The position numbers and the translations under genes were made by a program. Positions 4,695 to 57,760 of a stretch of 64,000 nucleotides of DNA are shown here, piece by piece (within the stretch, counting starts at the first letter, position 1; each line of letters starts with the position of its first letter). The notes beneath the pieces were generated by a model. The model was not told the origin of the DNA and did not search any database. It saw nothing but the letters and a program-made list of their open reading frames with translations. This DNA comes from an uncultured Candidatus Saccharibacteria bacterium (GTDB lineage Bacteria; Patescibacteriota; Minisyncoccia; UBA6257; 2-01-FULL-56-20). The stretch lies in the NCBI GenBank assembly GCA_964360585.1, contig CAYHXC010000002.1:5641-69640 (forward strand), written 5' to 3'.

Positions 4695-5393
4695 TCAGGA
4701 ATTGCGAGAAAAGACCCGACGGCCGCCGTACCACCTGATGCCGCCCAAGGCACCGGCGCGCACGCCCCAGCCGTCATCACGCCAATCGACGTACACGGAA
4801 CGCAGCACGCTATTCACGTCGCGAACGTAGAAGATGTTCGCCCACCCGTTGTTGAGCAGGGCACCTTCTCCACCGTTCGACTGGGCAACCATGAGCCGCC
4901 AGATTTCCGAGAGAGTAACTTCCGCGACAGCTTCGCCACCGAGGTCGGCGATGACCTCGCTGTCGTTGGCGCTCTGGGTCAGCGTGAGTGGAACGAGCAA
5001 GCCGTCCGGCACGTCTTCCTCCACTTTGCTGGCAAACCAGCTAATGAAGTTCAAGCCATGCTCGACCATCTTCACACCGGACGACTTCGAGAAGAAAGTA
5101 TCATCCGCCTTGAACGGGCAGGATTCGACGGGCTTCGGCGCGACGGGACGGAGCACCTTGCGGATACGGGGTTTCTTCGGGCGGGTGCGGATGGCATCCA
5201 CCATTACGACGATCGCGGCCTTGGTCTCCTTTATCACAAACTGGCGATCAACCCTACTGAGAGCATTGAAACCTGTTTGATGAGCGACCAGTTCGCCCAC
5301 CAGTCTTGACGTTTGTGGATCCTGTTCTGCGGTCATAGCTTTCCTCCTTTTTGACCGTTTCAACAAAGTCCTGCTGTTGGGCTTGGCCTTCAT
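4695..5393 (-). CDS. hypothetical protein (GC-rich, likely acquired)
   Basis: 232-aa ORF with GC near 60 percent, well above its neighbours. The probable start is MTAEQDP at about 5336. Confidence 0.5.
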   Translation of the reverse strand: MKAKPNSRTLLKRSKRRKAMTAEQDPQTSRLVGELVAHQTGFNALSRVDRQFVIKETKAAIVVMVDAIRTRPKKPRIRKVLRPVAPKPVESCPFKADDTFFSKSSGVKMVEHGLNFISWFASKVEEDVPDGLLVPLTLTQSANDSEVIADLGGEAVAEVTLSEIWRLMVAQSNGGEGALLNNGWANIFYVRDVNSVLRSVYVDWRDDGWGVRAGALGGIRWYGGRRVFSRNS

Positions 5394-5508
5394 GGTTTCG
5401 CCACAGCTCGTAAAAGCTCGATTCTTCGGGCTCCTATGAGCTATAGCGAAATCTCGCTGGTTATCAAAGATCGACTACAATATAACAAATAAACGTTATT
5501 ATGTCAAA

Positions 5509-5793
5509 TCAGCGGATTTGAGCGCCAAACTCAGTCTTTGATTTTTCCTCTAAAGCTTTGTGCATCACGTCTACTTCTTCGTTGGTAAGTGTTCGGTCGT
5601 TGTTTCTATAGATAACGCGATAGGTGTAGCTTTTCTTATCTTTTCCAAACTTTTCCTCATTTTCATATTGATCCAGGAGTTCTACCTGCTCCACTAAATC
5701 TCCAGCCACATCACGGACTAAATCAAAATAATTATTTGGCGCGAAAGTTTTTGGCGAGCAAGCAAGGTGAGAGGTCTTGCGAGGCGAAGCCAT
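5509..5793 (-). pseudogene. duplicated, diverged 3' end of pheS (FDX-ACB-like C-terminal ~85 aa)
   Basis: Translation ...PKTFAPNNYFDLVRDVAGDLVEQVELLDQYENEEKFGKDKKSYTYRVIYRNNDRTLTNEEVDVMHKALEEKSKTEFGAQIR is near-identical to the pheS C-terminus at 6871..7125. Nucleotide identity is about 78 percent and extends about 40 bp past the stop. Confidence 0.7.
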
Positions 5794-5919: not shown

Positions 5920-6756
5920 CTACTCGGACTTCCGGGCAGAGGCGACACCAAGAAGAACGTAACGGACGTCGTCCCAGAAGCTGCCGACGAACAGACCATC
6001 CGAGCCGAAGTAACCAACAACGACCCGGATCCCGTCCGAATCCAGAGACATCGTACGGACGTAGAGATTCGGGAATAGCCGCTCTCCCGTGACCAAGAAG
6101 TACAAGACCACGGCATAGACGAGTTCGCACGCCCGGGGCACCTCTTCGCACTCGGAGAGCAACGCCTTCTGGTCATCGAAATTCTTCGACGTCGAGCCCA
6201 CGACCGCTTCTTTGCGAATCAGGTACCAACGGACCTCGAGCTTCTCGTCCTTCGCGAACGACTGGTTGTTGTACCACGCATCCTTGTAGGAGTAGAACGT
6301 CTTCGGCTTCTTGTTGGGTGCTTTTGCGCGCACGTCCAAGATCGTCATCGGAAATCCGGCAACCAGGATGTGCGTATCCTTGCACTTCTCCAGCACGACT
6401 TCCGAGAATGGGATCTCGGCAAGCAACGCGAGCTGCTCCTCGGTGTACGCTGCGCCAAATTGACGCACGACTTCCTCGATGCCGAGGTAGTTTTTGCCCA
6501 TAATCTCGCGGGCGCGGATCTGGGACGGCGTGGGTTTGTAGTTCACGATCACGGCAGAGATTGAGGCGATGATGCCGTTCCCCGCAACAAGCGCGACTAC
6601 CTTCTCGAACAGCTCTTCGTCGTGGGCGAGTTTCGCCCAGAAGTTCTGCCCAGCTCCGACCTTACGGCCGGTGACGACTGCTTCGTGGATGAGTCCGTTA
6701 TCCTTTCCGAAATTTTCACAGCTCTCATCCAGACGCACCATGGTATTTGCTGTCAT
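5920..6756 (-). CDS. hypothetical protein (GC-rich)
   Basis: 278-aa ORF lying between the pheS fragment and intact pheS. GC is elevated. Confidence 0.55.
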   Translation of the reverse strand: MTANTMVRLDESCENFGKDNGLIHEAVVTGRKVGAGQNFWAKLAHDEELFEKVVALVAGNGIIASISAVIVNYKPTPSQIRAREIMGKNYLGIEEVVRQFGAAYTEEQLALLAEIPFSEVVLEKCKDTHILVAGFPMTILDVRAKAPNKKPKTFYSYKDAWYNNQSFAKDEKLEVRWYLIRKEAVVGSTSKNFDDQKALLSECEEVPRACELVYAVVLYFLVTGERLFPNLYVRTMSLDSDGIRVVVGYFGSDGLFVGSFWDDVRYVLLGVASARKSE

Positions 6757-6870
6757 GACACACCTCCTAGGGATAGTTGGTGTCGGATCAATTTCCGACG
6801 GAATTTGAGTAAAACCCTATATATTTCAAAGGACGACAATATTTTAACAAATAAGTACTAAGATGTCAAG

Positions 6871-8031
6871 TTAGCGAATTTGGGCGCCAAACTCGGTTTT
6901 CGATTTTTCCTCAAGCGCCTTATGAAGCACGTCTACCTCTTCATTCGTCAATGTTCGATCACTACTGCGATAGATAACACGATAGGCATAACTCTTTTTA
7001 TCGGCGCCAAATTTCTCCGCGTTTTCATACTCATCAATCAACTCCACTTGCTCCACCAGATCACCCGCCACGTCGCGAACAAGATCAAAGTAATTATTCG
7101 GCGCAAATGTTTTTGGCACGACGAAAGAAATATCGCGAGTCACCGGCGGATACTTACTCACCTCCTGGAACTTCGTTCCCATCGTGAGCTGCTTCGTCAC
7201 CCGCTCGTCTTTGGACCAGAGAAGCCGAATATCCGGCAGTTCCATGCTACTAATAGCGAGCCGGTCCAAGCCGAATCCAAAGGCCCAACCGTTGTAGCCT
7301 TCGAGACCGAAGTTTTTCAAAACACTCTTTTTCGGCATTCCCCCGCCAAGCAACTCAATCCACTGGCCATTAATCTGAATCTCTACTTCGAGCGACGGAT
7401 CGGTATAAGGAAATGTATCCGGATTAAAACGATACACCGTCGACTCACCGAAAATTCCTTTTACAATCTGACTCAACACATTTTTAAGATCATCCAACAC
7501 CATCATTCCCTGGCTATCAGGCTGGAGATACAAACCACCGAACTGATGGAAGATGTTCATATGGCGACGATCGATCTCGTCCTTGCGATAGACCTTGCCG
7601 TAACAAACCACACCGAGCGGTTCCTGTTTGGCAATCTTTGCTTTGATCTCGGGAAGATTTAAATAGTAGTACCACATGACGGTGTCATGCGTACGCAAAA
7701 TATTTTTCGGATCGGCATAGTAGGTATCCGAAGCGCTTCGCGCCGGGTGGTCCGGAGCAAAGTCGAACAGATCAAAACTAACATCGACCGGCACAATCTC
7801 CGGAATAATGATGTTGTCAAAGTTCGCAAGCGCCGGAACCCGCTTTACCGATTCCACAATTTCGTGGAGCGGACTTGTCGTCGTGCGCGACAGATCGTCC
7901 ATCGCCAAGTACCGCTTAATCCGTCCGGCCTCGGCGTCAGTGCGCGGCTCGAGCGTCTTCCGAACCTGGTTTTCGTTGTCTCGATCAATCGTATATTCGG
8001 CTGACTGGGTAAGGGGCGAAGTGAAATCCAT
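6871..8031 (-). CDS. pheS: phenylalanine--tRNA ligase alpha subunit
   Basis: Carries the class II aaRS core (FPYTDPSLEVEI, GWAFGFGLDRLA) and ends ...SKTEFGAQIR. Confidence 0.95.
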   Translation of the reverse strand: MDFTSPLTQSAEYTIDRDNENQVRKTLEPRTDAEAGRIKRYLAMDDLSRTTTSPLHEIVESVKRVPALANFDNIIIPEIVPVDVSFDLFDFAPDHPARSASDTYYADPKNILRTHDTVMWYYYLNLPEIKAKIAKQEPLGVVCYGKVYRKDEIDRRHMNIFHQFGGLYLQPDSQGMMVLDDLKNVLSQIVKGIFGESTVYRFNPDTFPYTDPSLEVEIQINGQWIELLGGGMPKKSVLKNFGLEGYNGWAFGFGLDRLAISSMELPDIRLLWSKDERVTKQLTMGTKFQEVSKYPPVTRDISFVVPKTFAPNNYFDLVRDVAGDLVEQVELIDEYENAEKFGADKKSYAYRVIYRSSDRTLTNEEVDVLHKALEEKSKTEFGAQIR

Positions 8032-8216: not shown

Positions 8217-10259
8217 TTACTGGGTCTTCAGATTAAAACACGCCCGAAATATGTCTAAAGATTCCCCAGGTTTTTGGAGACAGCGGATTCCTTGCTTCGC
8301 ATAACCATTCTTTAAAGAAAACGAGAGGGCGTTGGTAAAAGATTTCTCCGCTCCACTTCGGTCTCCTATGCCAACGTGAGCCAGTCCTAAACGCACCCAC
8401 AGATCGGCCACATCTTTGCGATTCTCATCTTTATACGGATTAATCCAAGCGATTGATCGAAAGGCCTCCGGTGTGTGCTCGACTACGATTGGCTCGAGAA
8501 AATCAATGATGGCTTGGTAGTTCTTTTCTTCAAGATATAGATTGGAAAGCTCGCGGTAGGCAGAAAAAAGCATGAAATGGTCGTGGTCCGTGGCGGTCAT
8601 AAAATCAGTTTCAGCTGCCGCCAAATCTCCCTCCAACTTACGAGCCTGTCCGCGTAGATAGAAAAGATAGGGATCCTTCGGTCGTGTCCTCAAGGCTTCC
8701 GTAATTTCTTGGAACGCCCGCAATCGATACAGAACTCTCTCTTTTTCATCTGGCACGCCAGAGGCCAGCCGCAGAGAAAGAATAGCCAAGTCGCGGTGGT
8801 AGAGCGGATTCCCGGCATCGCTCCGCACAGCCGCGTCGTACTTTTCGTAGGCCGCACGCATATCACCTTCCGCCAGCGCCATTGAAGCCTCGGTAAAATG
8901 AGCTTCGGCAAGAACACTCATACATCCAAAAATGAGCGCGATGAAACTGAAAACGATCACGAAAAGATTGAAGATAAACGAAAACTGCGTTTTATCTTTT
9001 TTATTTTCCGAGGAAAGATAGAGACGTAACACAATTCCAGCAACAATAAAGAAAAGGAAAACATCGGCCGGAAATATCCAGTCGGCATTAACCATGTTTT
9101 GAAATACGAGAGCCAGAAAACTGCCGACGACCACGTAGAGCATCTGTTCTTCGTGAAGTGAATGATGATTTCTGTTTTTTGTTACCGAAAAAACCATCAC
9201 GAGCAAAGCCGCGAGGAAAAGAACCAGGACCACTCCTCCAAAAATCCCTAACTCCACGAACCCGCGAGCGAGAATATTGTGCGGATCGGTGGTATAGAAC
9301 GTCAGACGATCACGGTACTCGGTCATGGCATCGCCGAAACTGCCCCAACCGACACCGAAGAGTGGACTATACGAAAATATGCGCGCTGACTGATAGAGAT
9401 ACTCAAGGCGGGCAGTCAGTCCGTTTTCCGAAGCGCTTTCCTCTTTAAAAATATCGGTTGGTTGGATCACGCTCGTCCCCGAAGCAACGCTTTGGGGATG
9501 GTTCTTAAACTGAAACGCGGCCGTAGCGAGGAGAATGCTGACCGCCATCAGTAAGAAAAGCGTTGCGCTGCGCCGCCAGATTTTTGAGAACGGCCAGCGG
9601 AGCAAAAACATTGTGATAAGAAACGATCCCAGGAAAGCCAGCGCCGCGCCGCGGGCAAACGTAAAGAAGAGGGTACAAAAAAGAAAAATATTTATGGCAG
9701 CATACCACCACTTTCGGGACTGCTTCGATTCATAGAAAAGAAAACTAGTCGCAAAAAAAAGTGACGGGAGCATAAAGCCGGCAAAAGCATTTTGTTGATA
9801 GAAAACTGATCCTAAGCGAAAGAAAGGATGGGCGCCAAAAAATATGTACAAGCCATAGAGCGAGAAAAGTATCGTGCCCCACAGTAGCCAGGAGAAAAAA
9901 CGCTCAATCTTCGCGAACTCCTTGATAATCGAAGGTGTTTTTATAAATACAATAAAAGCGGAAAAGAATATAAGGAATAACCGCGCTGTGGTATACCGGT
10001 CAAACGAAAAAAATCCCGAGATAAAAATGGAAACAAGAAAGAGAATACACGAGAAAAATACTGTTTTATAAAGACGGCCTCCCAAGAAAACCTCTTCTCG
10101 AAAAAAAAGTACGAGAAGAGTCACAAGCGTAAAAATCATAGCTTGCGCCATCGGTTCCATTCCGCCCATAAAAACGGTCGGCAAAAGAATGAGGGCGACG
10201 ATGGCCACAAAACCAACGTCTTCTTTTGACCACGCCGCCCATAATTTTAAAAAATTCAT
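8217..10259 (-). CDS. polytopic membrane protein, O-antigen-ligase-like (Wzy_C-type) with C-terminal TPR repeats
   Basis: 680-aa ORF with about 12 TM helices followed by a TPR-like C-terminal region. It is paralogous in architecture to 58277..60502. Confidence 0.55.
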   Translation of the reverse strand: MNFLKLWAAWSKEDVGFVAIVALILLPTVFMGGMEPMAQAMIFTLVTLLVLFFREEVFLGGRLYKTVFFSCILFLVSIFISGFFSFDRYTTARLFLIFFSAFIVFIKTPSIIKEFAKIERFFSWLLWGTILFSLYGLYIFFGAHPFFRLGSVFYQQNAFAGFMLPSLFFATSFLFYESKQSRKWWYAAINIFLFCTLFFTFARGAALAFLGSFLITMFLLRWPFSKIWRRSATLFLLMAVSILLATAAFQFKNHPQSVASGTSVIQPTDIFKEESASENGLTARLEYLYQSARIFSYSPLFGVGWGSFGDAMTEYRDRLTFYTTDPHNILARGFVELGIFGGVVLVLFLAALLVMVFSVTKNRNHHSLHEEQMLYVVVGSFLALVFQNMVNADWIFPADVFLFFIVAGIVLRLYLSSENKKDKTQFSFIFNLFVIVFSFIALIFGCMSVLAEAHFTEASMALAEGDMRAAYEKYDAAVRSDAGNPLYHRDLAILSLRLASGVPDEKERVLYRLRAFQEITEALRTRPKDPYLFYLRGQARKLEGDLAAAETDFMTATDHDHFMLFSAYRELSNLYLEEKNYQAIIDFLEPIVVEHTPEAFRSIAWINPYKDENRKDVADLWVRLGLAHVGIGDRSGAEKSFTNALSFSLKNGYAKQGIRCLQKPGESLDIFRACFNLKTQ

Positions 10260-10505: not shown

Positions 10506-11594
10506 TTAGTACGCGCCCCGGCCCAAAATGATCGCTGGTATAGTTTTCAACATAATGACAAGATCCATGAGAAATGACTGGTGATGAATGTAGTAGAAAT
10601 CATACTCCAAGTTCTCGGAGAGCGGAATGTCTTTTCGTCCGAGAATTTGCCATAGGCCAGTAATACCCGGTTTTACTGATAATCTCATCTTTTGCCATTC
10701 ATTATGTTGTACCACTAAAAATGGCATTTCCGGCCGCGGACCGACAATACTCATCTCGCCTCGAAGCACGTTCCACAGTTGGGGCAGTTCGTCCAAACTA
10801 TACCGCCGCAGAAAACGGCCAATCCGTGTCACTCGCTCATCGCTTTCCCTTCTCGGTCCCGGAGCATAGAGCGGCGTAGACTGGTCCATTGTCCGGAACT
10901 TGTAGATAAAAAACTTTTTCCCATACTGCCCCACGCGCTCCTGTTTCAGGATTGCCCGACCCGGACCATCTTTCCGAATGAGAAGGGAGATCGCTACAAA
11001 TGCAGGCGAGAGGATAATCAATCCTCCTGCCGCCGCAACCAAATCCGCTGTTCTTTTTGAAACACGATAGAAGTGATGACTTATGCCGCCTCCTTGTAAT
11101 CCCTCGACAAGATCCAGTTCACGCGACGCATCCACTGTGCGCTCTATAAAACTCCTGGCATTTTGAAAAACCTCCTCACTCTCTTCTCGCTGAACTGACT
11201 GCGGCAGGAAACGAACAACAAACAATCTCCAGAAAAATGGCAGCACTATGCCGGGAACTAAAGCGTAGATGAGAAGTACGCGGGAGTAATTCGCCTGGGC
11301 CACAAAAGAGAAAACAATCACGCCAAAACTCCACCAGGAAAGCGCGCGAATGTAATCGGTAAGATGAGAAAGAGAAAACTGCGGCCGTTTTCTACCATAT
11401 AAATTGAAGATGGAAAATATTCCCAAAAAAGAAATGAGGTAAAAATAGAGGAAAGGAAAATAAAAGGAAAAATCTTGGAGCGGCGGAAAAAATGGCGTTC
11501 GCTTGCGAAGAGCGAACACAAACATGAAGCCGATAACCAGAAGAACACCGTCTCCGACCACAAAAAACAGTTGACGAAGTTTATTTCGCTTCAT
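10506..11594 (-). CDS. polyprenyl-phosphate sugar phosphotransferase (bacterial sugar transferase, WbaP/PglC family)
   Basis: Conserved C-terminal domain ...[49 protein letters not shown]-terminal TM helices are present. Confidence 0.85.
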
Positions 11595-34353: not shown

Positions 34354-35110
34354 TTAGAATTTTATTACCGCGTACGCGCCGCGTATATTCTCGGACGCTG
34401 CCGTAATTGTTATTGAACCTTGTTCTTTCGGACTTTTTCCGCCGAAGGCGGATCCGCCTCTGGCGGACACTTTCGCGACTCCGGAACGGAACAGGAAACC
34501 AATCGGGTTTAACTCTACGATGCGGCGCACCACTTTTAATCCGTTCCCTCGTTTCTCCGGTTCTCTTCCGGATACAATTTCCGTAAATGCGACGCGGAGC
34601 GCTTCAACATCCGTTTCAATATTGGGACGTACGCGAGATAGTGTTTTTCGAACACCCTGTCCCCGGTCAGCCAGCACAATGAAGCGTTTACCGATATCAT
34701 ATGCAAAAAATATTCCCGGTACGTCAGGCCAGTTGCCAATGTTGTGCATGAAAGAATTATCTCCAATCTCGCCCGCAACGGTCGTAAGAAGAGAAGCTGC
34801 TTCCTCGCTCACCGATTTTGTTTGAGAAAGAAGCAATCCCATTTTTTCCAAACGACTCGAAAACCGTGCCTGCTGTTCGCAATAATATTCGGCTGGAATT
34901 TCCGGCGGTTGCGCGCTTGAAGCCCACGCCCATCCCAGTTTTTCAAGATCAAGCGCAAGACGTTGAATATCTTGTAGGAGATAATAACGCTGGCCTCCCT
35001 CACTTCGCTGCGACAAAAGTTTCCCCGTTTTTTCCCAATTACGGAGGGTCTGAACGCTCATGCCCAGTATTTCGGCTGCCTTGCCTATGCGAATTTTTTC
35101 ATCCTTCATG
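34354..35110 (-). CDS. MerR-type HTH fused to GHKL (histidine-kinase-like) ATPase domain
   Basis: N-terminal region KAAEILGMSVQTLRNWEKTGKL is a MerR/excisionase-type HTH. The C-terminal region has an N-box (GEIGDNSFMHNIGN), G1 (LADRGQG) and G2 (GNGLKVV). The real start is ATG at 35110; the ORF track's TTG extension covers the operator. Confidence 0.65.
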
Positions 35111-36991: not shown

Positions 36992-37063
36992 GTAAAAAGT
37001 ATATCAGGTTAGAATCAAAACAACCCTATGCAATAAGGCTTGGCTGAATACTAGTTCTAACTG

Positions 37064-37136
37064 CGCGGCCGGCCGGACTCGAACCGGTAACCCCCGCCGT
37101 GACAGGGCGGTGCTCTAACCAAATTGAGCTACGGCC
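37064..37136 (-). tRNA. tRNA-Asp (anticodon GUC)
   Basis: Minus strand reads GCGGCCGTAGCTCAATTTGGTTAGAGCACCGCCCTGTCACGGCGGGGGTTACCGGTTCGAGTCCGGCCGGCCGC. Confidence 0.85.
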
Positions 37137-37218
37137 GCAAACTTGGATTCGATACCTAGCTATTGTACGGAAAAGAGTGGAAAAAGCAACGCAACATATT
37201 CTCCCCTCCTATCACTAT

Positions 37219-37258
37219 TATATAAAACGATCGTTTTATATAATAGTGATAGTGTAAG
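37219..37258. repeat. 40-bp perfect palindrome (atcactattatataaaacgatcgttttatataatagtgat) at the 3' end of the 37260..37856 gene
   Basis: Centred on cgatcg. It shares the core ctattatataaaacgatcgttttatataatag with the copy at 37860..37895. Confidence 0.7.
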
Positions 37259-37259
37259 A

Positions 37260-37856
37260 CTAGATAAGGTGATGGAGAGCACCGGCACTTCCTACTTCAA
37301 AAATCTCGACGTGCTTGCCTAAACCTAGACAATATAAATCCTTAATCAATTCTTTAGGGATTTTTGTTTTGCCGAGCCAAACACTTTTTTGAATTTGTCT
37401 TAACCCCAGTTCGCGAAGAACAAGACGAAGCCAATCTCGCTTACGTCTGTCTTTTTCAGGTATATCGAAAGCAACGATAACTGGTTTACCAATCTTTTCT
37501 GCGTGGTAGTTGGCCAGTGGCAATTCTTCCTTTCGGAATCGCCGATAATCTTCTAAGCGCCTGCGTCCAGTTTTTGTTATAGTAAAGAACTTACCCTTTT
37601 CTTTTTCGTTTTCCGAAATCAAACCTGCCTGCTTCAAATAATAGAGCAGATTGTAGTATCGTTGTTTTTCGCTCGTAGTCTTTCGTAACTTCCTCCCTCG
37701 AGTCCTTCTCTCCTTTTGCACGATATTGGTCATCGCATTTAGTTTTTTGAACGAAGCACCATATCCTGCTCGTAAAAAGGCTTCGAAAAGATCAGTGCTT
37801 GTTACAGCCGCATCCTTCACCGCTTCAAGAATTCTAAAAGTGATATCTCCTCTCAT
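37260..37856 (-). CDS. winged-HTH regulator with Cas2/VapD-like C-terminal domain (PaaX-like architecture)
   Basis: The C-terminal segment VIVAFDIPEKDRRKRDWLRLVLRELGLRQIQKSVWLG resembles the Cas2 core. The N-terminal ~90 aa look like a wHTH. Confidence 0.5.
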   Translation of the reverse strand: MRGDITFRILEAVKDAAVTSTDLFEAFLRAGYGASFKKLNAMTNIVQKERRTRGRKLRKTTSEKQRYYNLLYYLKQAGLISENEKEKGKFFTITKTGRRRLEDYRRFRKEELPLANYHAEKIGKPVIVAFDIPEKDRRKRDWLRLVLRELGLRQIQKSVWLGKTKIPKELIKDLYCLGLGKHVEIFEVGSAGALHHLI

Positions 37857-37859
37857 GTT

Positions 37860-37895
37860 GCTATTATATCAAACGATCGTTTTATATAATAGCAA
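37860..37895. repeat. second copy of the ~36-bp palindrome, at the start codon/promoter side of the 37260..37856 gene
   Basis: Sequence gctattatatcaaacgatcgttttatataatagc. Confidence 0.7.
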
Positions 37896-37898
37896 CGA

Positions 37899-40074: not shown

Positions 40075-40166
40075 GAGCAGATTCAAGGCTTGGCCGAGTA
40101 CCGCAACCGAGATGTATTCAACATACACCGAGGGCGGAACGCAGGCCGTAACGCAGAATCTGCCCA
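40075..40166. ncRNA. copy A of a repeated structured element (conserved acaaggcttg..gagtaccg..cgagggcggaacgca..gtaacgcag framework with four covarying helices)
   Basis: Lies immediately 3' of the 40183..40695 gene. Pairings are P1 gcagattc/gaatctgc, P2 ggcc/ggcc, P3 atgtat/atacac and P4 ccgc/gcgg. Confidence 0.6.
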
Positions 40167-42939: not shown

Positions 42940-43581
42940 CTAATCTATAAAATTATACGCCACCTGGCCGCCTTGGCCGACGGTGATACGGATTCGGCCG
43001 CTGCCGTTTTTATTTTTTACGACAATCGAGCTACTACTCGCGCGCAATTTCGTACCATCCGGGGCGAAGAAGTAGATTTGGGGATCGGGCGGTCGGAAAA
43101 CAATATCCGCGGCCGTCGTCTCGCTCGCATCAAACACCACATTGCGCGATAAAACATACTCCCCTCGTTCGGCCACCACCCGATCATAGTTTGAGATGAT
43201 CGAAGTAGAGCTGCCGATATTGGCGCACAAAGGCACGGGAATACTGGGATCAGGTTGGAGTTTCTTGAGATACCGATTGAGACTGAACTTTCCCGGATCG
43301 GAAGCAAGATCAATTGAGAGACCGTGGGCGCAGGTTACGCGACTGACATCAGGATCACGATAGGCGGAGATGGCCAAAGATTTTGACCGCAAGATAACGT
43401 CTATAACCTTAGAAGCCTCGACGTAGAGGGTCACCTGATCATGGCCAATGCGGCTGAAAGACACGAGTGTGCCGGAGATAATCGCCATAATCGCGACTAC
43501 AACCAAAAGTTCGATCATGGTAAATCCTTCACGAGGGGTGAGGGTTAAGGGTAGAGGGTTAAGGGTAGATTTTTTAATCAT
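42940..43581 (-). CDS. prepilin-type protein with long Pro-rich leader
   Basis: Contains REGFTMIELLVVVAIMAIISG. The leader LNPLPLTLTP is encoded by a 14-bp tandem repeat. Confidence 0.7.
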   Translation of the reverse strand: MIKKSTLNPLPLTLTPREGFTMIELLVVVAIMAIISGTLVSFSRIGHDQVTLYVEASKVIDVILRSKSLAISAYRDPDVSRVTCAHGLSIDLASDPGKFSLNRYLKKLQPDPSIPVPLCANIGSSTSIISNYDRVVAERGEYVLSRNVVFDASETTAADIVFRPPDPQIYFFAPDGTKLRASSSSIVVKNKNGSGRIRITVGQGGQVAYNFID

Positions 43582-43946
43582 CTTTCTAGAATTTTTCCGT
43601 GACCTAACTTTTTCATCAGTACAGTAAGCATCTTTTGAATTTCTTCAATCAGATTTTTCGCCTCTCTAAAATCTTGCCCAGGATAAAGTTCTTCGGCAAT
43701 AATGATCTGAGTTTCTAACTCACCAGCCGAACCATTCGCCACACCTAAAAATTGAATATATTCTTTCCGATTTCTTCTTTTGTATCCTTCGGCAACATTT
43801 GAAGGAATAGAAACGGCACATCGCCTCATTTGGCTTGAAAGACTGTACAATTCACTTTTGGGAAATTGATCAGTAATGCGATAAATGACCTTCACTAATG
43901 CAACTCCTTTCTTCCAAACCTCCAGATCTTTAAACGAGATTAACAT
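43578..43946 (-). CDS. four-helix-bundle protein (23S rRNA intervening-sequence protein family)
   Basis: Contains DLEVWKKGVALVKVIYRITDQFPKSELYSLSSQMRRCAVSIPSNVAEG, the family signature. Confidence 0.7.
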   Translation of the reverse strand: MLISFKDLEVWKKGVALVKVIYRITDQFPKSELYSLSSQMRRCAVSIPSNVAEGYKRRNRKEYIQFLGVANGSAGELETQIIIAEELYPGQDFREAKNLIEEIQKMLTVLMKKLGHGKILER

Positions 43947-45297: not shown

Positions 45298-45463
45298 CAG
45301 AGTCCATCTCAAAAATCCATTTCTATAACAATGACGAAATTTCCGGCTGCAAGCCACTCATCCCTCCTCTCCATAGCTACGGCTATGCTTCGTCGGGCTT
45401 CATGCCTTTCGCTCGGAACTTTAGTATGTTATGACGAAAGCGATTTTTGAGATGGACTCTAGC
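45298..45463. repeat. 19-bp perfect inverted repeat (agagtccatctcaaaaatc) bracketing a 123-bp segment, 20 bp upstream of the pilA start
   Basis: The left arm is at 45300-45318 and the right arm at 45443-45461. Internal direct repeats atgacgaaa sit next to each arm. Confidence 0.7.
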
Positions 45464-45510: not shown

Positions 45511-45609
45511 GAATGGCCATCGGCAAGGCTTGATTGAGTACCGTAACCGAGGTGTATTTAAAATACATCGAGGGCGGAACGCAAATCGTAACGCTGCAGA
45601 TGGCTATTC
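45511..45609. ncRNA. copy B of the repeated structured element
   Basis: Lies immediately 3' of pilC. Pairings are P1 ggccatc/gatggc, P2 gatt/aatc and P3 gtattt/aaatac. Confidence 0.6.
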
Positions 45610-47996: not shown

Positions 47997-48206
47997 ATCA
48001 GGGTAGTAGAAGTTCGATATTAAAGATTCCTATTCGACAATTTGTTTTCCAGGCATGAAACACCTATCGAACTTTCACAACCTGGCATAAAAAAATTATA
48101 CCATATATATTGAACTACACCTGTTTTCCTGCTTCAGTTCAGAAATTATCAGATACAAGGCTGGGTTAAACACGCAACTGAACGGTATTTAGATACTCAT
48201 CTTTTC

Positions 48207-48340
48207 GATTCAGAAATGGACAGGTGCGAGGCAGAGCTAAGCTCAGCTTTGCTTGGCTGAGTATCGCAAGCGAATCGTACTCCTCGGTACGATGAGTGCG
48301 AAACGGAAGCCGTAACGATGCAAATGACCGTTTATGAATC
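48207..48340. ncRNA. copy E of the repeated structured element (most divergent)
   Basis: Lies immediately 3' of pilB. Pairings are P2 ggct/agcc, P3 tcgtac/gtacga and P4 tcgc/gcga, all compensatory changes relative to the other copies. Confidence 0.55.
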
Positions 48341-48348
48341 GAAAAAAC

Positions 48349-50163
48349 TCAAAACTCGGTGGTTTCGCGAAGCACATCTTCAAGCGACACCAGTCCCGCC
48401 AGCGCCTTCAAAACGCCATCCTGACGCATCGTCACCATCCCCTGTCGTTTGGCCTCGGCAATCAGTGTTTGCATGGTAAAACTGCCGCTAATCACGGCCT
48501 CAAGTTCCGGCATCATTCGGAAAACTTCGAAGATGGCCATCCGTCCGATCGTTCCCTTCCCCCGACAGACGTTACAGCCAGGCGCATGATAGACGGTATA
48601 GGGTTCTTTGTAGCTGGCCACCAGATCAGGCGATAGTCCGGCAACCGCTTTTTTGATAATCGTCTGGAGCTCTTTCGATCCTTCCTCCGCTTGTTTGCAG
48701 TTTTCACAGAGGCGCAAAGCCAGACGCTGGGCCACCATCAAGTTTAGCGAAGCCGGCAAAAGAAAGGAATCTATTTTCATATCTAATAAGCGCGGAATAA
48801 CGCTCACCGAATTATTGGTGTGGAGCGTGGACAAGACGACATGGCCAGTTAAAGCGGCGTGGACGGCTAAACCGGCAGTTTCAGTGTCGCGAATTTCACC
48901 GACCATAATCACATCCGGATCCTGACGGAGAATCTGGCGCAAGCCGGAAGCAAAATCATACCCAATCTCGGGATGGACCTGCGACTGATTGACGCCGGTC
49001 ACGAAATACTCGACGGGATCCTCAAGACTGACAATGTTCGCGCTTTCTTTGTTCAAGGCTTGGAGCAAGGCATAGAGCGAGGTGCTTTTTCCGGAACCGG
49101 TCGGACCAGTCACGAGCACCATGCCGAACGGCTTGGCCAGACCTTCCTTCACATATTCGGCATTTTTTCCCATGAGACCAAGCTCATCAAAACTTTTGAG
49201 ACCGGTCGTTGGATCCAAAACACGGATGGCTACCTTTTCACCGTGCGGTGTTGGAAATGTCGAAACGCGAAAGTCGATACTTCGATTTGAGACGGTCGTT
49301 CGAAACCGACCATCCTGGGGAATACGCGTCTCGTCAATTTTCAAATTGGAGATAACTTTGATACGCGAGATAACTGGCTGGCCAAGTTCCGGCGGCAGTG
49401 CCGCTTCCTCGCGCAGTTCGCCGTCAACGCGAAGACGGATACGAAGATAGTTTTGTTGCGGCTCGATATGAATATCCGAGGCGCCGCGAGCCACGGCTTC
49501 GCGAAACGTTTCGGCCACGATTCTGATAACCGGCCCATCCTCGGCACCACCCTTTCCCGCTTCGAGACTGATGACATCGCGTTCAGCCACCGATTTCAAA
49601 TTGAGCGACTTAATAGCCGACTCAATCTCGCTCTTGTAGGGCGAGTATTTCTGAAGCACCGCCTGCCAATCGCTCCAGGAAATGAGATAGACGCCGAGAT
49701 TCAGATGCGTCCGCCGGGCGATAAACTTGATCGCCTCCTGGGCTTTCAAGTCATCCGGATTGACCATACCCACCACCAGGAGATCATTTTGTTTTTCAAT
49801 CGGAATAACGCCGTAGGTTCTGACCGTCTCCTCGGGAAAAAGTTCGTAGAGTTCTTTCGTGATATCCTCTACCTTTACTTTTTTATAGGGAACTTTGAGC
49901 GCCTGGGCCTTGAGCTGGGCCAACTTACTGTCGTCAATAAGGCGACGCTCCACAATTACCGCCTCAACCGGCCGTCCAGAAAGTTCAACTTCGCGTTTCA
50001 ACGAAGCCAGCGTGACCTGGTCGAACAGATTGGCCGTCTCAATTTCCTTTAAAAACTTAGAGGATTCCATATAGTAGTAAGTATACTGCGAATTTCTAAA
50101 GGATGCAGTATGAAGGAAGTCTACAGTTCGTGAATAACAAGCTTTGGCCATTTCTTCTGCCAA
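48349..50163 (-). CDS. pilB: type IV pilus assembly ATPase (GspE/PilB family)
   Basis: 604-aa ORF with an N-terminal GSPII domain, Walker A GPTGSGKSTSLYA and a tetracysteine motif CENC...CNVC. Confidence 0.9.
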   Translation of the reverse strand: MAEEMAKACYSRTVDFLHTASFRNSQYTYYYMESSKFLKEIETANLFDQVTLASLKREVELSGRPVEAVIVERRLIDDSKLAQLKAQALKVPYKKVKVEDITKELYELFPEETVRTYGVIPIEKQNDLLVVGMVNPDDLKAQEAIKFIARRTHLNLGVYLISWSDWQAVLQKYSPYKSEIESAIKSLNLKSVAERDVISLEAGKGGAEDGPVIRIVAETFREAVARGASDIHIEPQQNYLRIRLRVDGELREEAALPPELGQPVISRIKVISNLKIDETRIPQDGRFRTTVSNRSIDFRVSTFPTPHGEKVAIRVLDPTTGLKSFDELGLMGKNAEYVKEGLAKPFGMVLVTGPTGSGKSTSLYALLQALNKESANIVSLEDPVEYFVTGVNQSQVHPEIGYDFASGLRQILRQDPDVIMVGEIRDTETAGLAVHAALTGHVVLSTLHTNNSVSVIPRLLDMKIDSFLLPASLNLMVAQRLALRLCENCKQAEEGSKELQTIIKKAVAGLSPDLVASYKEPYTVYHAPGCNVCRGKGTIGRMAIFEVFRMMPELEAVISGSFTMQTLIAEAKRQGMVTMRQDGVLKALAGLVSLEDVLRETTEF

Positions 50164-50690
50164 TTCTTCTTAATGATTCTATCTCGATAGATATCCATCT
50201 TTCTTCGAAAAGTCGGGCTAGGACGAACTTCTAGATTAATTAAATCAGAAATGCCATGAGGTTGAACGAGAACAAGCTTGTCATTCTCGTCGAGCAGAAC
50301 AGCAAGACAGGTCACCGTTTCCGGCCATCGAGAGAGTGCGTCTTCTGAAGAAGTATAGGGGTCGTCGCCATTATCCACATGAAGACGGACTTGATTGTTC
50401 AAGGACCACCTTGGTCCGGGCATCTCTTCGGATAATTTTTCCTGAAGTTTGGTTTCAGTATCCTCACTCACGTCAGTCCGATCAAAATAAATAACATCAA
50501 TATCGTCGAGAGGCGTCCTATCTTTGTAACCATGGAGGTGGTCCCACACTTTATTACGCACGAAACCAGCTCCGATCATAGCGTCAGGAAGTTTTAAATC
50601 CCTCACTGTCTTTAGAATATCCATCATCCACTGATCTTCAGAAATAATGCGTAAAATATCTTTTTCGGTCATACGTTGATATATTGGCAT
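50121..50690 (-). CDS. nucleotidyltransferase-family protein (NTP_transf-like)
   Basis: Contains DILKTVRDLKLPDAMIGAGFVRNKVWD...DIDVIYFD. The start is reassigned to MPIYQRM; the ORF track's N-terminal extension is the translated repeat element C. Confidence 0.5.
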   Translation of the reverse strand: MPIYQRMTEKDILRIISEDQWMMDILKTVRDLKLPDAMIGAGFVRNKVWDHLHGYKDRTPLDDIDVIYFDRTDVSEDTETKLQEKLSEEMPGPRWSLNNQVRLHVDNGDDPYTSSEDALSRWPETVTCLAVLLDENDKLVLVQPHGISDLINLEVRPSPTFRRKMDIYRDRIIKKNWQKKWPKLVIHEL

Positions 50691-50699
50691 AAAATTTGA

Positions 50700-50809
50700 G
50701 TTTAAAAACGATGAGCTACAAGGCTTGGTCGAGTACCGCAAGGGAGCTGTATTAAGCATACAGCGACTGCGGCACGGAGACCGTAACGCAGTAGATCACG
50801 TTTTTAAAC
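50700..50809. ncRNA. copy C of the repeated structured element
   Basis: Lies immediately 3' of the 50815..51132 gene. Pairings are P2 ggtc/gacc and P3 ctgtat/atacag. Confidence 0.6.
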
Positions 50810-52483: not shown

Positions 52484-52550
52484 GAAGAGGTGTCGCGAAT
52501 AATGCTAATGTGAATAAATAATGCGAATAAACTTATAACTCATTTTGATT

Positions 52551-52597
52551 GTACCGTGAGCGCGAAACAGAGATTGTAACGAAGTAGATAAACATTT
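52551..52597. repeat. partial/degenerate copy of the structured element (3' portion only)
   Basis: Sequence ttgattgtaccgtgagcgcgaaacagagattgtaacgaagtag, 3' of pilM. Confidence 0.35.
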
Positions 52598-52607
52598 TAT
52601 GAGCAAA

Positions 52608-53738
52608 TTAGACGAGTTCTTTCATTCCTAGTCCTAATGCCACAGTGAAAAGCGGATTGAGTTGCGGAATGAGCGGTTCCATGAGCGGCGGGTATTCAAA
52701 GCGGAGGAAGGGAGAGGCTTTGACCGTAGGACGACCAAGTTCCCGCTCGACATACTTCTCAATGCCTAAAAGATTCGCTCCTCCACCGGAAAGAATAATC
52801 CGCTCCACGGGCTTCACGTTCGTAAACTGACTACTATAATTAAACTCCTGCTTCTTGACATCTCCTAGTATAGCATCTAAAAACGGCAGCATTATTGTGG
52901 ACAACTCATATTCGGCGCCGCTTCCAACCAGACCCCGTTCCTTCTTCAGCTCCTCTGCCCGACGGGAGTTGATGTTCAAACTCGAGGCCAACGCCTGCGT
53001 GAGCGAGGCGCCGCCAAAATCACTCTGCCCGTTAAACCGCAACTGTCCGCCCTCAAAAAAAGCGATATTGGTCGAACGGGAACCGATATCAACAACCGCC
53101 GTCGGCGTCGGATCATTGCCAACCAGGATTCTGCCCACACTCAAACTTTCGAGTTCCAGCCACCGCAGATTGAGACCAGCTGTCTCAAACACTTTTTTAA
53201 ACTTGGCGATATGCTCGAGCGGCACGGACAAAAGCAAAATTTGTTGATGATGATAGCCTTTGTCGTCGTCGAACTCTCCCACCTTAATCCACTCGAGACT
53301 CACTTCCGATATCGGCAATGGAATATACTGCTTGGCCTGGAAGGCAATCGAGTTCTGCAACTCTCCCGGCGTCATCTCCGGAAGATCGAGCAGGGTGACG
53401 AAAGCGGAAAAAATTGGAAACGAAGCAATCACATCCCGCGTCTGCGGTTTCATCTTGCCGATAATCGATGTCAGAATCTCTGTTGCCTCCTGATCAAACA
53501 GTTTTAAATTGCTGGATTGGATGGCCGAAGTCGGCCGGCCGAGATACTTGCTCTCTTCCGAGAAACCATAGTTCACTACCGCCGGCATTTTTCTCCCCGG
53601 CTTCACTTCAACCACTTTAATCGAGGTCGTCCCGATATCTACGCCCAAATACGACGGAAAAAGATTCCGCCGGAACGAGCGATAGGCCGTCAGTGGATTG
53701 ATCCAGTCGAGCATCGTACTATAGAGTATATCACACAA
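52608..53738 (-). CDS. pilM: type IV pilus assembly ATPase-like protein PilM (actin/HSP70 fold)
   Basis: Contains LGVDIGTTSIKVVEV, a phosphate-1 motif. Confidence 0.8.
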   Translation of the reverse strand: MCDILYSTMLDWINPLTAYRSFRRNLFPSYLGVDIGTTSIKVVEVKPGRKMPAVVNYGFSEESKYLGRPTSAIQSSNLKLFDQEATEILTSIIGKMKPQTRDVIASFPIFSAFVTLLDLPEMTPGELQNSIAFQAKQYIPLPISEVSLEWIKVGEFDDDKGYHHQQILLLSVPLEHIAKFKKVFETAGLNLRWLELESLSVGRILVGNDPTPTAVVDIGSRSTNIAFFEGGQLRFNGQSDFGGASLTQALASSLNINSRRAEELKKERGLVGSGAEYELSTIMLPFLDAILGDVKKQEFNYSSQFTNVKPVERIILSGGGANLLGIEKYVERELGRPTVKASPFLRFEYPPLMEPLIPQLNPLFTVALGLGMKELV

Positions 53739-55587: not shown

Positions 55588-56124
55588 ATGATAGATGGTG
55601 AAGAAGACATCATAAAAAGCGCCATCCAGGGCGAGGCCTCGGCCTTCGGCTTACTCTACAAGCACTATCAGCCGAGTATCTATCGGTTCGTATACTTGAA
55701 AGTCGGCCGTCGTGAGGAGGCCGAGGACCTCACCCATCACGTTTTCCTGAAGGCTTGGCAGAATATCGAAAACTTCAAACCCCGTGGCTTCCCCTTCTCG
55801 AGCTGGCTCTACCGTATGGCCCGGAATCAAGTCATTGATTTCTACCGCACGGCCAAAGGGAACATCTCGATTGACGATCTCGACTCGGACATCTTTAGGT
55901 CGAGCGACGATACGGAAGGTTCATTTGATCTTAGTCTTCTTTTGGCAAGTGCTCGGAAAGCCATCCTCGAGCTCAAGCCGGAGCACCAGGACGTGATCAT
56001 TATGCGTTTTGTGGAAGACCTTTCGGTCAGAGAAGTGGCCGAGGCTCTGAAGAAAAGCGAAGGGGCGGTCAAACTTTTGCAACATCGAGCGATGGAAAAA
56101 TTGCGAGAAATCCTTCATGACTAA
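55588..56124 (+). CDS. RNA polymerase ECF-type sigma factor
   Basis: Region 2 (FGLLYKHYQPSIYRFVYLKVGRREEAEDLTHHVFLKAW) and region 4 (VIIMRFVEDLSVREVAEAL). Confidence 0.9.
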   Translation: MIDGEEDIIKSAIQGEASAFGLLYKHYQPSIYRFVYLKVGRREEAEDLTHHVFLKAWQNIENFKPRGFPFSSWLYRMARNQVIDFYRTAKGNISIDDLDSDIFRSSDDTEGSFDLSLLLASARKAILELKPEHQDVIIMRFVEDLSVREVAEALKKSEGAVKLLQHRAMEKLREILHD

Positions 56125-56596
56125 TCTCGAACACATTTTAAAAAAGCTGAAACACATCGAACCGGAGCAGCACTATGCCGACCGGTCGTTACACACGATT
56201 GTCATGACCCCGCGAACATCGCGAGCTTCGTGGTTTTCCTTTACCTTTTTCCGAGTCGCGGAGTATGGCGCCGCCGTAGCCCTCGTTGGATTATTGCTCG
56301 TCGTCATGCTTGGCAACTCTTCTCTCGTGACTACGTTTTCGCCAATTCAATCCAATAGCTTAAGTTCGGGTGGACTGCGGGCCGAAGCAGAAGCGATTGA
56401 TATCCAGATCAAACTGCTCGACCTTGATTACGAGGAGAGTTCGAGCACGCTTATCAAGAAATCCACCACTCCGATTCTTCGGAAGAAAACCAGCCGACAA
56501 GTGATTGCGCCACTCGAGACAACCACATCAACAATCGCGAACGAATCAACCACTCCCCCAACCGTAGACGAAGTTTTAGACTTACTCGCTGAATGA
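56117..56596 (+). CDS. putative anti-sigma factor (single TM)
   Basis: Overlaps the sigma factor gene stop. It has a cytoplasmic N-terminus, a TM helix AVALVGLLLVVML and a Ser/Thr-rich tail. Confidence 0.45.
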   Translation: MTNLEHILKKLKHIEPEQHYADRSLHTIVMTPRTSRASWFSFTFFRVAEYGAAVALVGLLLVVMLGNSSLVTTFSPIQSNSLSSGGLRAEAEAIDIQIKLLDLDYEESSSTLIKKSTTPILRKKTSRQVIAPLETTTSTIANESTTPPTVDEVLDLLAE

Positions 56597-57345
56597 TAGC
56601 TCTAAAACGCACACATTCTAGAAGCGCTGTTCTGGCAGTGCTCGTTCTCGCCGCTAGTTTGCCGTTTCACGCGAGCGCCCAAGGGCCGCTCTGTGATTTT
56701 GGAACAAAAATAACCGAACTAAAAGCCTTGCAGTCCAGCGGCACAAACGAAGTCGTGGCCGAACTGAATGTCCGAAAAGATCTTTTGAAAATCAGCATCG
56801 GCTGCTTAAAGAAAGAAACGAAGTATTCCGATAGCGAACTCCAAAAGATCGAATCGGATCGTGAAGATATCAAAGCTTTTGCCGAATGGATCCATCGGCA
56901 GATTCAAGAGAATGTCAGCTACTACAACTACAAAGAAACGCAGATCGACAGTTTGGGCTTGAAGGGGGCTAAAGATTTTGCCAAAGAATTAGCGAACCGC
57001 AAAGAGCAGGTGAACACTGTTCTCGACAACTTGGTCGTCAGCCTGACCGACTGGATGAGTAACGAAAATTTATTTAAGACTGGCGAGAAGCGTTTTGCGG
57101 ATATCAAGAAGACACTGAGCGCCTTTAATCTGCCGCACGATCACGAAATCCTTCTCCTAGAAAAAGAAGCGATGGGAATTTTCAATGAAGGAAAGGTAAA
57201 GCATCAGGAAACCTGGAAGGATCTCTCGAACCGAGAGGTTGAAGCTAGCCGAGCCGAAGCCAAAGAGTCATTGGAACTTCTGGCCGAAGCATACGAAGTT
57301 TTCCTTAAGATAAGCGAGGTTAGTAAAAAAACTCTCCCACTTTAA
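56593..57345 (+). CDS. secreted coiled-coil protein
   Basis: Signal peptide MIALKRTHSRSAVLAVLVLAASLPFHASA followed by Lys/Glu-rich helical sequence. Confidence 0.5.
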   Translation: MIALKRTHSRSAVLAVLVLAASLPFHASAQGPLCDFGTKITELKALQSSGTNEVVAELNVRKDLLKISIGCLKKETKYSDSELQKIESDREDIKAFAEWIHRQIQENVSYYNYKETQIDSLGLKGAKDFAKELANRKEQVNTVLDNLVVSLTDWMSNENLFKTGEKRFADIKKTLSAFNLPHDHEILLLEKEAMGIFNEGKVKHQETWKDLSNREVEASRAEAKESLELLAEAYEVFLKISEVSKKTLPL

Positions 57346-57650
57346 CCTTAAAACGCGAAATGCTTCGTTACGGCCTGCGCTCCGCCCTCACATAAATGTG
57401 AACTTCCGCCGAAGGCGGATCCTCCTCCGGAGGACGCTTACGGTGCTCGGCCAAGCCTCGCATTTCATCATTTTATGGCTAAAGTAAAATACACTATCCC
57501 TTCAACATAAAACACCCCGTCTATAGGGGTGTTTTGATTGTTGAATTAAATTCAGATCCAGAATTGTTGATTTTTGGATTTTCTACAAGGCGGCAGTGAG
57601 TACCGAAGCGAGACAGGGAGTTATCAACGGAACTTGATTCTCAAATTTTA

Positions 57651-57760
57651 TTGATAACGCGATGAAATACAAGGCTTGACCGAGTACCGCCCCGAGCAAT
57701 ATTGAAACATATTGTAAGGGCGGAACGCAGGTCGTAACGCAGTAGTTCGCGCGTTATCAA
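57651..57760. ncRNA. copy D of the repeated structured element
   Basis: Lies immediately 3' of hup. Pairings are P1 ttgataacgcg/cgcgttatcaa (11 bp), P2 gacc/ggtc, P3 caatat/atattg and P4 ccgcc/ggcgg. Confidence 0.6.

Follow-up and report, generated by a model that had tools for sequence, protein, structure and literature searches.

A structured palindromic repeat family at gene ends of Patescibacteria, with a half-copy beside pilM

The 64,000-nt stretch of DNA analysed here, hereafter the window, carries a family of structured palindromic repeats located at gene ends. Two fragments in it had been marked by the initial annotation as partial copies, and only part of that proposal holds: the fragment beside pilM was significant in every test applied, while the one beside tRNA-Asp has a score at the level of chance. 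Overall, these data are probably best explained by a clade-specific palindromic repeat residing at gene ends, from which the pilM relic arose by the loss of one arm. Both flagged stretches sit in slots normally occupied by this repeat.

The repeat family is real and the evidence for its structure is strong. A direct-repeat search together with a covariance model (CM) built from four copies identified six full copies of a 91-nt core hairpin in the window, and pooling the window with public collections gave 24 hits, 22 of them distinct. On the plus strand, copies are found after the ORF upstream of ligA (40075-40165; CM 110.7 bits; its ortholog in the relative L005 is at 9772-9863), after pilC (45515-45605; 103.7 bits; a precise insertion with respect to three relatives), after pilB (48241-48329; 56.3 bits; a variant whose 5' frame is interrupted by a small hairpin), after a 105-aa ORF of the pilus operon (50710-50800; 103.6 bits) and after the HU gene (57661-57751; 89.6 bits). 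A minus-strand copy with an enlarged apical region follows the plus-strand ORF 56593-57345 (57354-57469; 47-64 bits). The window paralogs are 49-77% identical to one another.

Intact cores share the frames CAAGGCUUG-NNN-GAGYAYCGC ... GCGRARCG-NA-NNN-CGUAACGCAG. On the 5' side, CAAGGCUUG leads into a variable 3-bp helix, after which come a GA/GNA loop and a further helix that contains an invariant A.A mismatch; beyond this helix lie an AA bulge, a tandem GA/GA loop and the apical hairpin, and the return strand carries the CGUAACGCAG frame. The core has two internal loops of the GA/GA type, and besides the A.A mismatch it includes a U.G pair that is likewise invariant. The outer stem that carries the core is AT-rich and variable, an inverted repeat of ~15 bp loosely reading CTTTGAA...TTCAAAG, and the whole hairpin, outer stem included, extends over about 125-130 nt.

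In the pooled family alignment, 91.3% of the cells are in standard pairs and 20 of the 28 pairs have changed on both sides, that is, in a compensatory manner; none of 500 shuffles matched any of the structure measures, and slid controls were 30-42% paired. Additionally, conservation is higher in the unpaired junction columns (0.88) than in the paired ones (0.73). In an Rfam scan of the window, tRNAs alone reached the gathering threshold and the hairpin copies were left without a family, the best sub-threshold match on any of them being to snoRNA sR39 (8.7 bits, E=3.8). Hammerhead and other ribozyme cores did not fit the hairpin on inspection, in agreement with the empty Rfam result. A reading of GAGUA/GAAC as a sarcin-ricin or loop-E motif was rejected, since columns 25 and 112 show Watson-Crick covariation (U-A in 9 copies, C-G in 12), which leaves only the A.A mismatch. 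Other repeats are present in the window as well. Repeat D12 (34437-34475) lies within a coding ORF and does not belong to the hairpin family. A 292-nt direct repeat with 75% identity occupies 5464-5755, in the spacer between ORFs 4695-5393 and 5920-6756, and 6826-7117, where it overlaps the 3' end of a 386-aa ORF with phenylalanyl-tRNA synthetase domains (6871-8031).

The two strands of the element are not equivalent. With the invariant U.G wobble left out, G.U and A.C cells are in a 43:7 ratio on the element strand, and in 19 of 21 copies the strand that bears CAAGGCUUG folds more stably than the complementary one, by 8.2 kcal/mol on average (p=7e-6). It is this strand that runs antisense to the neighbouring gene, and on it both the fold and the junction nucleotides are shown to be under purifying selection. 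As for placement, the initial annotation had put the element immediately 3' of minus-strand genes, a rule that stands and can be generalised: in 16 of 21 distinct copies, among them the minus-strand copy downstream of a plus-strand gene, a distance of 3-20 nt separates the 3' end of the element from a stop codon on the opposite strand. Clear exceptions are two, L010/L015 and L011/L014, both in sense orientation. The outer stem terminates at the stop codon or overlaps it, the stop codon being inside the stem in the window copy at 57354(-), in L016 and in L021. None of the 21 distinct full copies is downstream of a tRNA.

A position directly past stop codons, with an A-rich run before the hairpin and a U-rich run after it, is shared with bidirectional intrinsic terminators; the hairpin, in contrast, is far longer and more elaborate and has conserved internal loops. 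Its tails are enriched in T on both strands, with 5.0 T in 11 nt on the element strand and 4.4 on the other (~2.75 expected), so that the U-rich tail is only slightly stronger on the element strand. No hairpin copy was flagged by a consensus terminator scan, which is unable to model a long interrupted hairpin. ORF 56593-57345 and the HU gene converge, and the spacer that separates them contains, midway between two facing copies, a bidirectional intrinsic terminator of canonical form (AAAACACCCC gtctata GGGGTGTTTT; 57509-57535); the hairpins are therefore unnecessary for termination at this site. Several other copies are found between genes of a single operon.

The distribution of the family is narrow. 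The pattern first used on the genome collections had no matches, and the hits of a relaxed pattern scan of the public collections were limited to a single Patescibacteria MAG (H41-bin141_1), contigs from Hainich groundwater and a single JGI sample; scanned viral contigs had none. A literature search for a described Patescibacteria element of this sort returned nothing relevant. LigA homologues point to an affiliation with Paceibacteria-like Patescibacteria, and relatives at 73-77% LigA identity have the same synteny from the pilus operon to ligA and are missing most of the hairpin copies. The site upstream of ligA is occupied in the window and in L005 and is empty in L001, L003 and L022. The two orthologous copies at this site are 84% identical within intergenic DNA that is otherwise unalignable, share their outer helix, and differ from each other in a compensatory manner. 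In turn, the pilC, pilB and 105-aa-ORF sites are occupied in the window alone among the genomes compared.

The pilC site is particularly informative. Three relatives read CCAGTAG directly followed by AATA... in the pilC-pilin spacer, and the window has ~129 nt inserted exactly at that point, outer stem included, before resuming with TTGTAG followed by AATG.... As the empty site has no outer stem in any of the three relatives, the idea that the stem was a pre-existing host hairpin receiving the core in its loop was rejected. Adjoining the hairpin copy in this spacer, an exact search also confirmed a 160-nt insertion (45300-45459) with perfect 18-bp terminal inverted repeats (GAGTCCATCTCAAAAATC ... 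GATTTTTGAGATGGACTC), missed by an automated repeat search, which is lacking from the same spacer in L001, L003 and L005 and looks like a second, unrelated MITE-like element. The pilus operon of the window differs from those of L001, L003 and L005 in another respect: between the prepilin peptidase gene and a pseudopilin gene of this type IV pilus operon it has a minus-strand gene for a 122-aa four-helix-bundle protein of the 23S_rRNA_IVP / bAvd-like type (43578-43946), which is missing from the operon in the three relatives; no reverse transcriptase (RT) is encoded in the window. Similarly, a minus-strand NTP_transf_6 nucleotidyltransferase gene (50121-50759) is located between the 105-aa ORF and pilB, beside the copy 50710-50800. 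Relatives have just 19-35 nt at this junction, from which the gene and the hairpin may have arrived jointly or successively.

These comparisons show that hairpin copies have been gained and lost between related genomes, and gain and loss at orthologous sites supports insertion followed by decay. The proposal that the element is mobile or recombining is thus sustained as far as turnover by insertion and deletion at orthologous sites is concerned, and is not borne out with regard to truncation at feature boundaries. In other words, mobility is partly supported, in the form of slow gain and loss followed by decay.

The fragment next to pilM is a genuine member of the family, reduced to its 3' half. 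It spans 52543-52589 on the plus strand, within the 124 nt that separate pilM from the next pilus gene, and corresponds to profile positions 41-87. The nhmmer E-value is 4.8e-5 with a 6-copy profile, 2.8e-7 (25.5 bits) with a 22-copy profile and 4.7e-7 with a profile devoid of any window copy, and none of 200 dinucleotide shuffles reached its score. A weight matrix of the 3' frame gave 27.4 bits against a null maximum of 20.4, and the maximal segment at this position has 43.5 bits. The relic keeps the 3' strand of P3, the GA junction, the GCGaAAC and GTAACGaAG frames and the 3' strand of P0, and its 5' arm is deleted. The pilM gene itself (52608-53738, minus strand; PF11104 PilM_2, E=4.9e-35) has its stop codon adjoining the relic, ~16 nt from the end of the core, which is the canonical distance. 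A short outer inverted repeat encloses the fragment (52538-52604, plus strand; ACTCAT at 52538-52543 and ATGAGC at 52599-52604, recognised from sequence and fold) and ends 3 nt short of the stop codon.

How this half-copy originated can be read from three relatives with PilM at 86-89% identity (L023-L025). The orthologous site of L023 holds a full-length, divergent copy (CM E=2e-5) with a nested GC-rich insert, and the pilM spacers of L024 and L025 are empty, with 46 and 19 nt; full copy, half-copy and empty sites are thus all represented. Between the stop codon and the apical loop, the window fragment and the L023 copy align colinearly, which identifies the fragment as a deletion relic. The stretch is therefore shown to be what remains of a resident full copy after loss of its distal (5') arm. 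The initial annotation was right in recognising here a second partial copy, with the 3' framework only, and in looking to relatives for the full-length version; its suggestion that the copy had been cut at the boundary with another feature does not hold, as the loss is internal, of one hairpin arm, with the outer inverted repeat retained. The predicted fold of the relic region is no more stable than those of shuffled sequences (z about 0 to +1), and the relic can no longer form the hairpin.

A second relic in the window, a 5' half-copy, was found at 48149-48191 on the plus strand (nhmmer E=0.008-0.019, profile positions 3-48), ~50 nt upstream, in the sense of the element, of the pilB copy; its polarity is opposite to that of the pilM relic, and 10 bits were reached by 0.5% of shuffled windows in the corresponding control. 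A weak candidate for another 5' half-copy, at 57578-57609 on the plus strand and upstream of the HU copy, is not significant (nhmmer E=1.9-2.7, CM E=9.5). The relics do not fold better than shuffles, and half-copies are presumably inert given that they cannot fold. Two observations concern the neighbourhood of pilT and pilB. Upstream of pilT, an extended -10-like box, TGGTATAAT within TATGGTATAATTTTTT (48096-48104, minus strand), is kept in the window, L001, L003 and L005, and this sequence conservation suggests that pilT may have its own promoter within the pilus gene cluster. After pilB in L003, a long inverted repeat at 2830-2950 (GCTTTCATTTTCAGAAC ... GTTCTCAAAATGAAAGC) has arms resembling the outer stem of the L017 hairpin copy, and no family core is detectable in its interior; either a copy that has decayed completely or a hairpin unrelated to the family could account for it.

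The case of the fragment beside tRNA-Asp is different. The tRNA-Asp (GTC) gene runs on the minus strand from 37063/37064 to 37138 (ARAGORN; Rfam RF00005, 63.1 bits), and its trailer carries the AAGGCTTGG motif. The candidate relic of the 5' frame comprises 18 nt on the plus strand, tAAGGCTTGGCTGAATAC at 37034-37051, matching CAAGGCTTGnnnGAGYAY, and is enclosed by a 9-bp inverted repeat (37012-37059, plus strand; GGTTAGAAT at 37012-37020 and AGTTCTAAC at 37051-37059). A truncated copy stopping exactly at the tRNA had been proposed here. The match in fact ends 12 nt before the tRNA, and the 36-mer quoted in the initial annotation is at 37031-37066, slightly displaced from the positions first given, with its last 3 nt (cgc) belonging to the tRNA; the tRNA-Asp and pilM landmarks had been placed correctly. 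The tRNA-Asp gene is syntenic downstream of ligA in L001-L004, and no family copy was found in the trailers of these four relatives. L003 and L004 have a nearly identical tRNA-Asp followed by an unrelated trailer with no trace of the element. In L001 and L002 the trailer is GC-rich and its sole significant similarity is to a separate hairpin module; a variant family copy initially assigned there (E=2.4e-6) was withdrawn, the similarity being confined to that module. Smith-Waterman comparison of the window trailer with that of L001 was not significant (p=0.85).

The GC-rich hairpin module of these trailers (CTCGCCTCGCTGnAGCTnnGGCGAAGCGGG) is a separate small repeat family. It occurs at ~2381-2430 of the window, at 10642-10689 and 19616-19640 of L001 and at ~2088 of L020; it stands alone, once directly after tRNA-Asp in L001/L002, and is also nested in two copies of the hairpin family, in L013 (~1750) and L023 (~4215). 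On the other side of tRNA-Asp, the window and L003 differ too. In L003 the tRNA is 37 nt downstream of ligA; in the window, a 198-aa gene of the PaaX_M/Cas2-like winged-helix type (37260-37856) lies in between, flanked by near-identical palindromes of 40-44 bp (CTATCACTATTATATAAAACGA/TCGTTTTATATAATAGTGATAG) at 37209-37252 and 37857-37896, within direct repeats at 37200-37246 and 37846-37892. From the comparison of the ligA/tRNA-Asp gap with L003, the gene and its palindromes resemble either a unit that was inserted or an operator pair under autoregulation.

It is about an even call whether the 18-mer beside tRNA-Asp resembles the family by chance, in which case the stretch would be the 3' trailer of the tRNA plus the 5' UTR of an APH phosphotransferase gene and the pilM fragment would be the only one of the two to belong to the family. 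The scores are those expected of a random match. The nhmmer E-value is 0.56 with the 6-copy profile and 2.6-3.9 with the 22- and 16-copy profiles, an equal match was present in 24-76% of dinucleotide-shuffled windows (0.26-1.2 such matches per window), and in a boundary-free maximal-segment test the fragment scored 21.0 bits, a value attained by 0.9-1.5 segments in each shuffled window and equalled or exceeded inside ORFs of the real window at 55768, 51511(-) and 47835(-). An apparently significant result with an 18-column weight matrix (0-0.01 hits per shuffled window) was withdrawn, because the boundaries had been picked after seeing the match; widened by three columns, the matrix puts the match below the 95th percentile. 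Moreover, the 8-mer AAGGCTTG is found 7 times outside true copies, the invariant G24 is an A in the 18-mer, and the stretch enclosed by the inverted repeat folds no better than shuffles (z = -0.08 and -0.9). The trailers of the relatives, lacking the element or holding the unrelated module, also agree with a chance match. By the two refuting conditions that the initial annotation had set, a shuffled-sequence control and the orthologous loci of relatives, the truncated-copy proposal fails. Against a chance match, the slot and the orientation are canonical for the family, and only ~0.07-0.1 chance matches per window are expected in that zone (antisense, <=130 nt from a gene end); the 9-bp inverted repeat encloses the match as the outer stem does in true copies; and relics of both polarities exist in the window. 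A relic that mirrors the pilM case, with the 5' frame kept and the rest deleted, is favoured only by this context of slot, orientation and inverted repeat, and we give it roughly even chances.

As for the family itself, we consider it unlikely that it represents an active non-autonomous mobile element of the REPIN or MITE kind, which would target gene ends, move as single-stranded DNA through an HUH/RAYT-type or other enzyme encoded elsewhere in the genome, and leave partial copies as abortive or truncated insertions or as excision scars. The patchy occupancy of orthologous sites, the precise insertion at pilC and a copy number that varies among related genomes would fit such an element, as would the strand specificity of the fold, reminiscent of REPs, whose single-stranded DNA is recognised by RAYT (PMC3733652). 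Short direct repeats that include the stop codon flank four window copies (AGTAAAA, TGAGT, GTAG and TGA; 3-7 nt), and at two gene ends older half-copies are distal to full copies, as if new insertions had occurred at the stop codon. These direct repeats, however, are irregular in length and absent from many copies, with no fixed-length or otherwise consistent target-site duplication of the sort that had been suggested as a check; genes for a transposase, RAYT, integrase or reverse transcriptase are missing from the 64-kb window, and the viral contigs gave no matches. The termini, namely the outer stems, are the least conserved part of the element, and the paralogs are old, as judged by their low mutual identity, and they show compensatory changes and loop conservation. 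Even two opposite-strand copies only 200 nt apart each take their orientation from the gene next to them, a polarity that the replication-strand logic of HUH elements fails to explain. Finally, colinearity of the pilM relic with the resident copy of L023 argues for deletion instead of a truncated insertion.

Selection of the fold on the antisense strand, the U-rich run that follows the hairpin on that strand and loop nucleotides conserved in the manner of protein- or target-binding sRNAs could also be taken to mean that every copy is a small antisense RNA gene with its own transcription, converging on the 3' end of its neighbour, with the partial copies as pseudogenes. We regard this as unlikely: many copies fill the intergenic space and have 19-34 nt upstream, which leaves no room for a promoter, no conserved promoter-like boxes are found upstream, and the upstream A-rich run merely complements the U-rich one. 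A bolder and likewise doubtful reading is that of a gene-end-seeking element of Patescibacteria, a structured single-stranded RNA or DNA module whose precise insertion sites would be stop codons and, perhaps, the 3' ends of tRNAs, with its orientation set by the direction of the target gene and its functional fold antisense to it; a putative protein reading the GA-rich junctions would bind or mobilise the module, and half-copies would log successive rounds of insertion and decay.

The repeat at gene ends that we favour has counterparts among known bacterial repeats, and we class the family as an ordinary, previously undescribed palindromic repeat of the REP/ERIC class. REPs are extragenic; most lie downstream of ORFs, and some overlap the stop codon or provide it (PMC3733652), a placement also seen in the 16 of 21 distinct hairpin copies that are 3-20 nt from a stop codon. 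As described for Pseudomonas and E. coli, among others, REP/REPIN-RAYT systems (PMC3116915, PMC3733652) resemble the hairpin in this extragenic position downstream of genes, often within transcribed DNA, in their patchy presence among related genomes, and in being long-lived with a preserved hairpin of which one strand matters. REPs are nevertheless defined as imperfect palindromes of 20-40 bp with a conserved GTAG (or CGTC) tag at one end (PMC3733652). The unit described here is, in contrast, neither a 20-40-bp REP nor an inverted pair of REPs: it consists of a single 91-nt hairpin with several junctions, set on a variable outer stem, and it has no conserved GTAG or CGTC tag, GTAG following GCA at the base of P0 in only some of the 22 copies. 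Additionally, no RAYT or Y1_Tnp domain was found in any sizeable ORF of the window, the copy number appears low, and orientation is tied to the adjacent gene.

ERIC (IRU) and Correia (NEMIS) elements are imperfect palindromes of ~100-160 nt in transcribed intergenic regions close to stop codons. They form RNA hairpins with an orientation-dependent effect on the flanking mRNA, give rise to shortened copies by deletion within the palindrome, and have conserved terminal inverted repeats with a fixed TA duplication. The hairpin, with its unit of ~125-130 nt, is like them present or absent at orthologous intergenic sites. Unlike them, in a comparison made by description, its termini are the most variable part and its internal junctions the most conserved. 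Nor does it have the conserved terminal inverted repeats and fixed target duplication of MITEs, given that outer stems share only the loose CTTTGAA/TTCAAAG.

Integron attC sites are similar in being imperfect palindromes of ~60-140 nt located directly 3' of an ORF, with a folded bottom (antisense) strand and structure prevailing over sequence. The hairpin differs from them in that the R''/R' boxes (RYYYAAC ... GTTRRRY) are absent from its ends, which carry the frames CAAGGCTTG and CGTAACGCAG; closest to the boxes are GTTACGG in the gene sense and CGTAAC in the element sense, which breach the consensus and are on the wrong side. Its flanking genes are not cassettes but pilM/N/B/T/C, pilin, ligA and HU, whose order is conserved in relatives without the element, and no integrase is encoded in the window. 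Within the REP/ERIC class, three features of the family are odd: selection of the fold on one strand, conserved junction nucleotides, and an antisense polarity linked to the gene.

The intact element is a module inserted just past a stop codon, with its folding strand antisense to the gene. At pilM, a resident full copy has lost its distal (5') arm, arm loss being a typical liability of long palindromes; the 3' arm is still in its canonical register, and the short outer inverted repeat persists. With regard to function, intact copies may serve as an RNA hairpin barrier or as a putative protein-binding platform. In a tentative model, to which we attach low confidence, the element would act as a single-stranded nucleic acid, most likely RNA: a hairpin at the gene end whose barrier effect would depend on orientation, being greater for transcription that converges on the gene than within the transcript of the gene itself. 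With the same low confidence, the conserved purine-rich loops could constitute the putative platform for protein binding.

The flagged fragments are in themselves ordinary, one being a decayed relic and the other a doubtful match. Of more interest is the family, an undescribed and strongly covarying structured repeat confined to a narrow clade of groundwater Patescibacteria, with strict antisense polarity at gene ends; within a type IV pilus operon that is otherwise conserved, it turns over from one close relative to another. The family could be used as a strain-level marker of genome dynamics in the Hainich aquifer populations and, if the fold acts as RNA, it would be among the few candidate cis-acting RNA elements in the reduced, uncultivated Patescibacteria.
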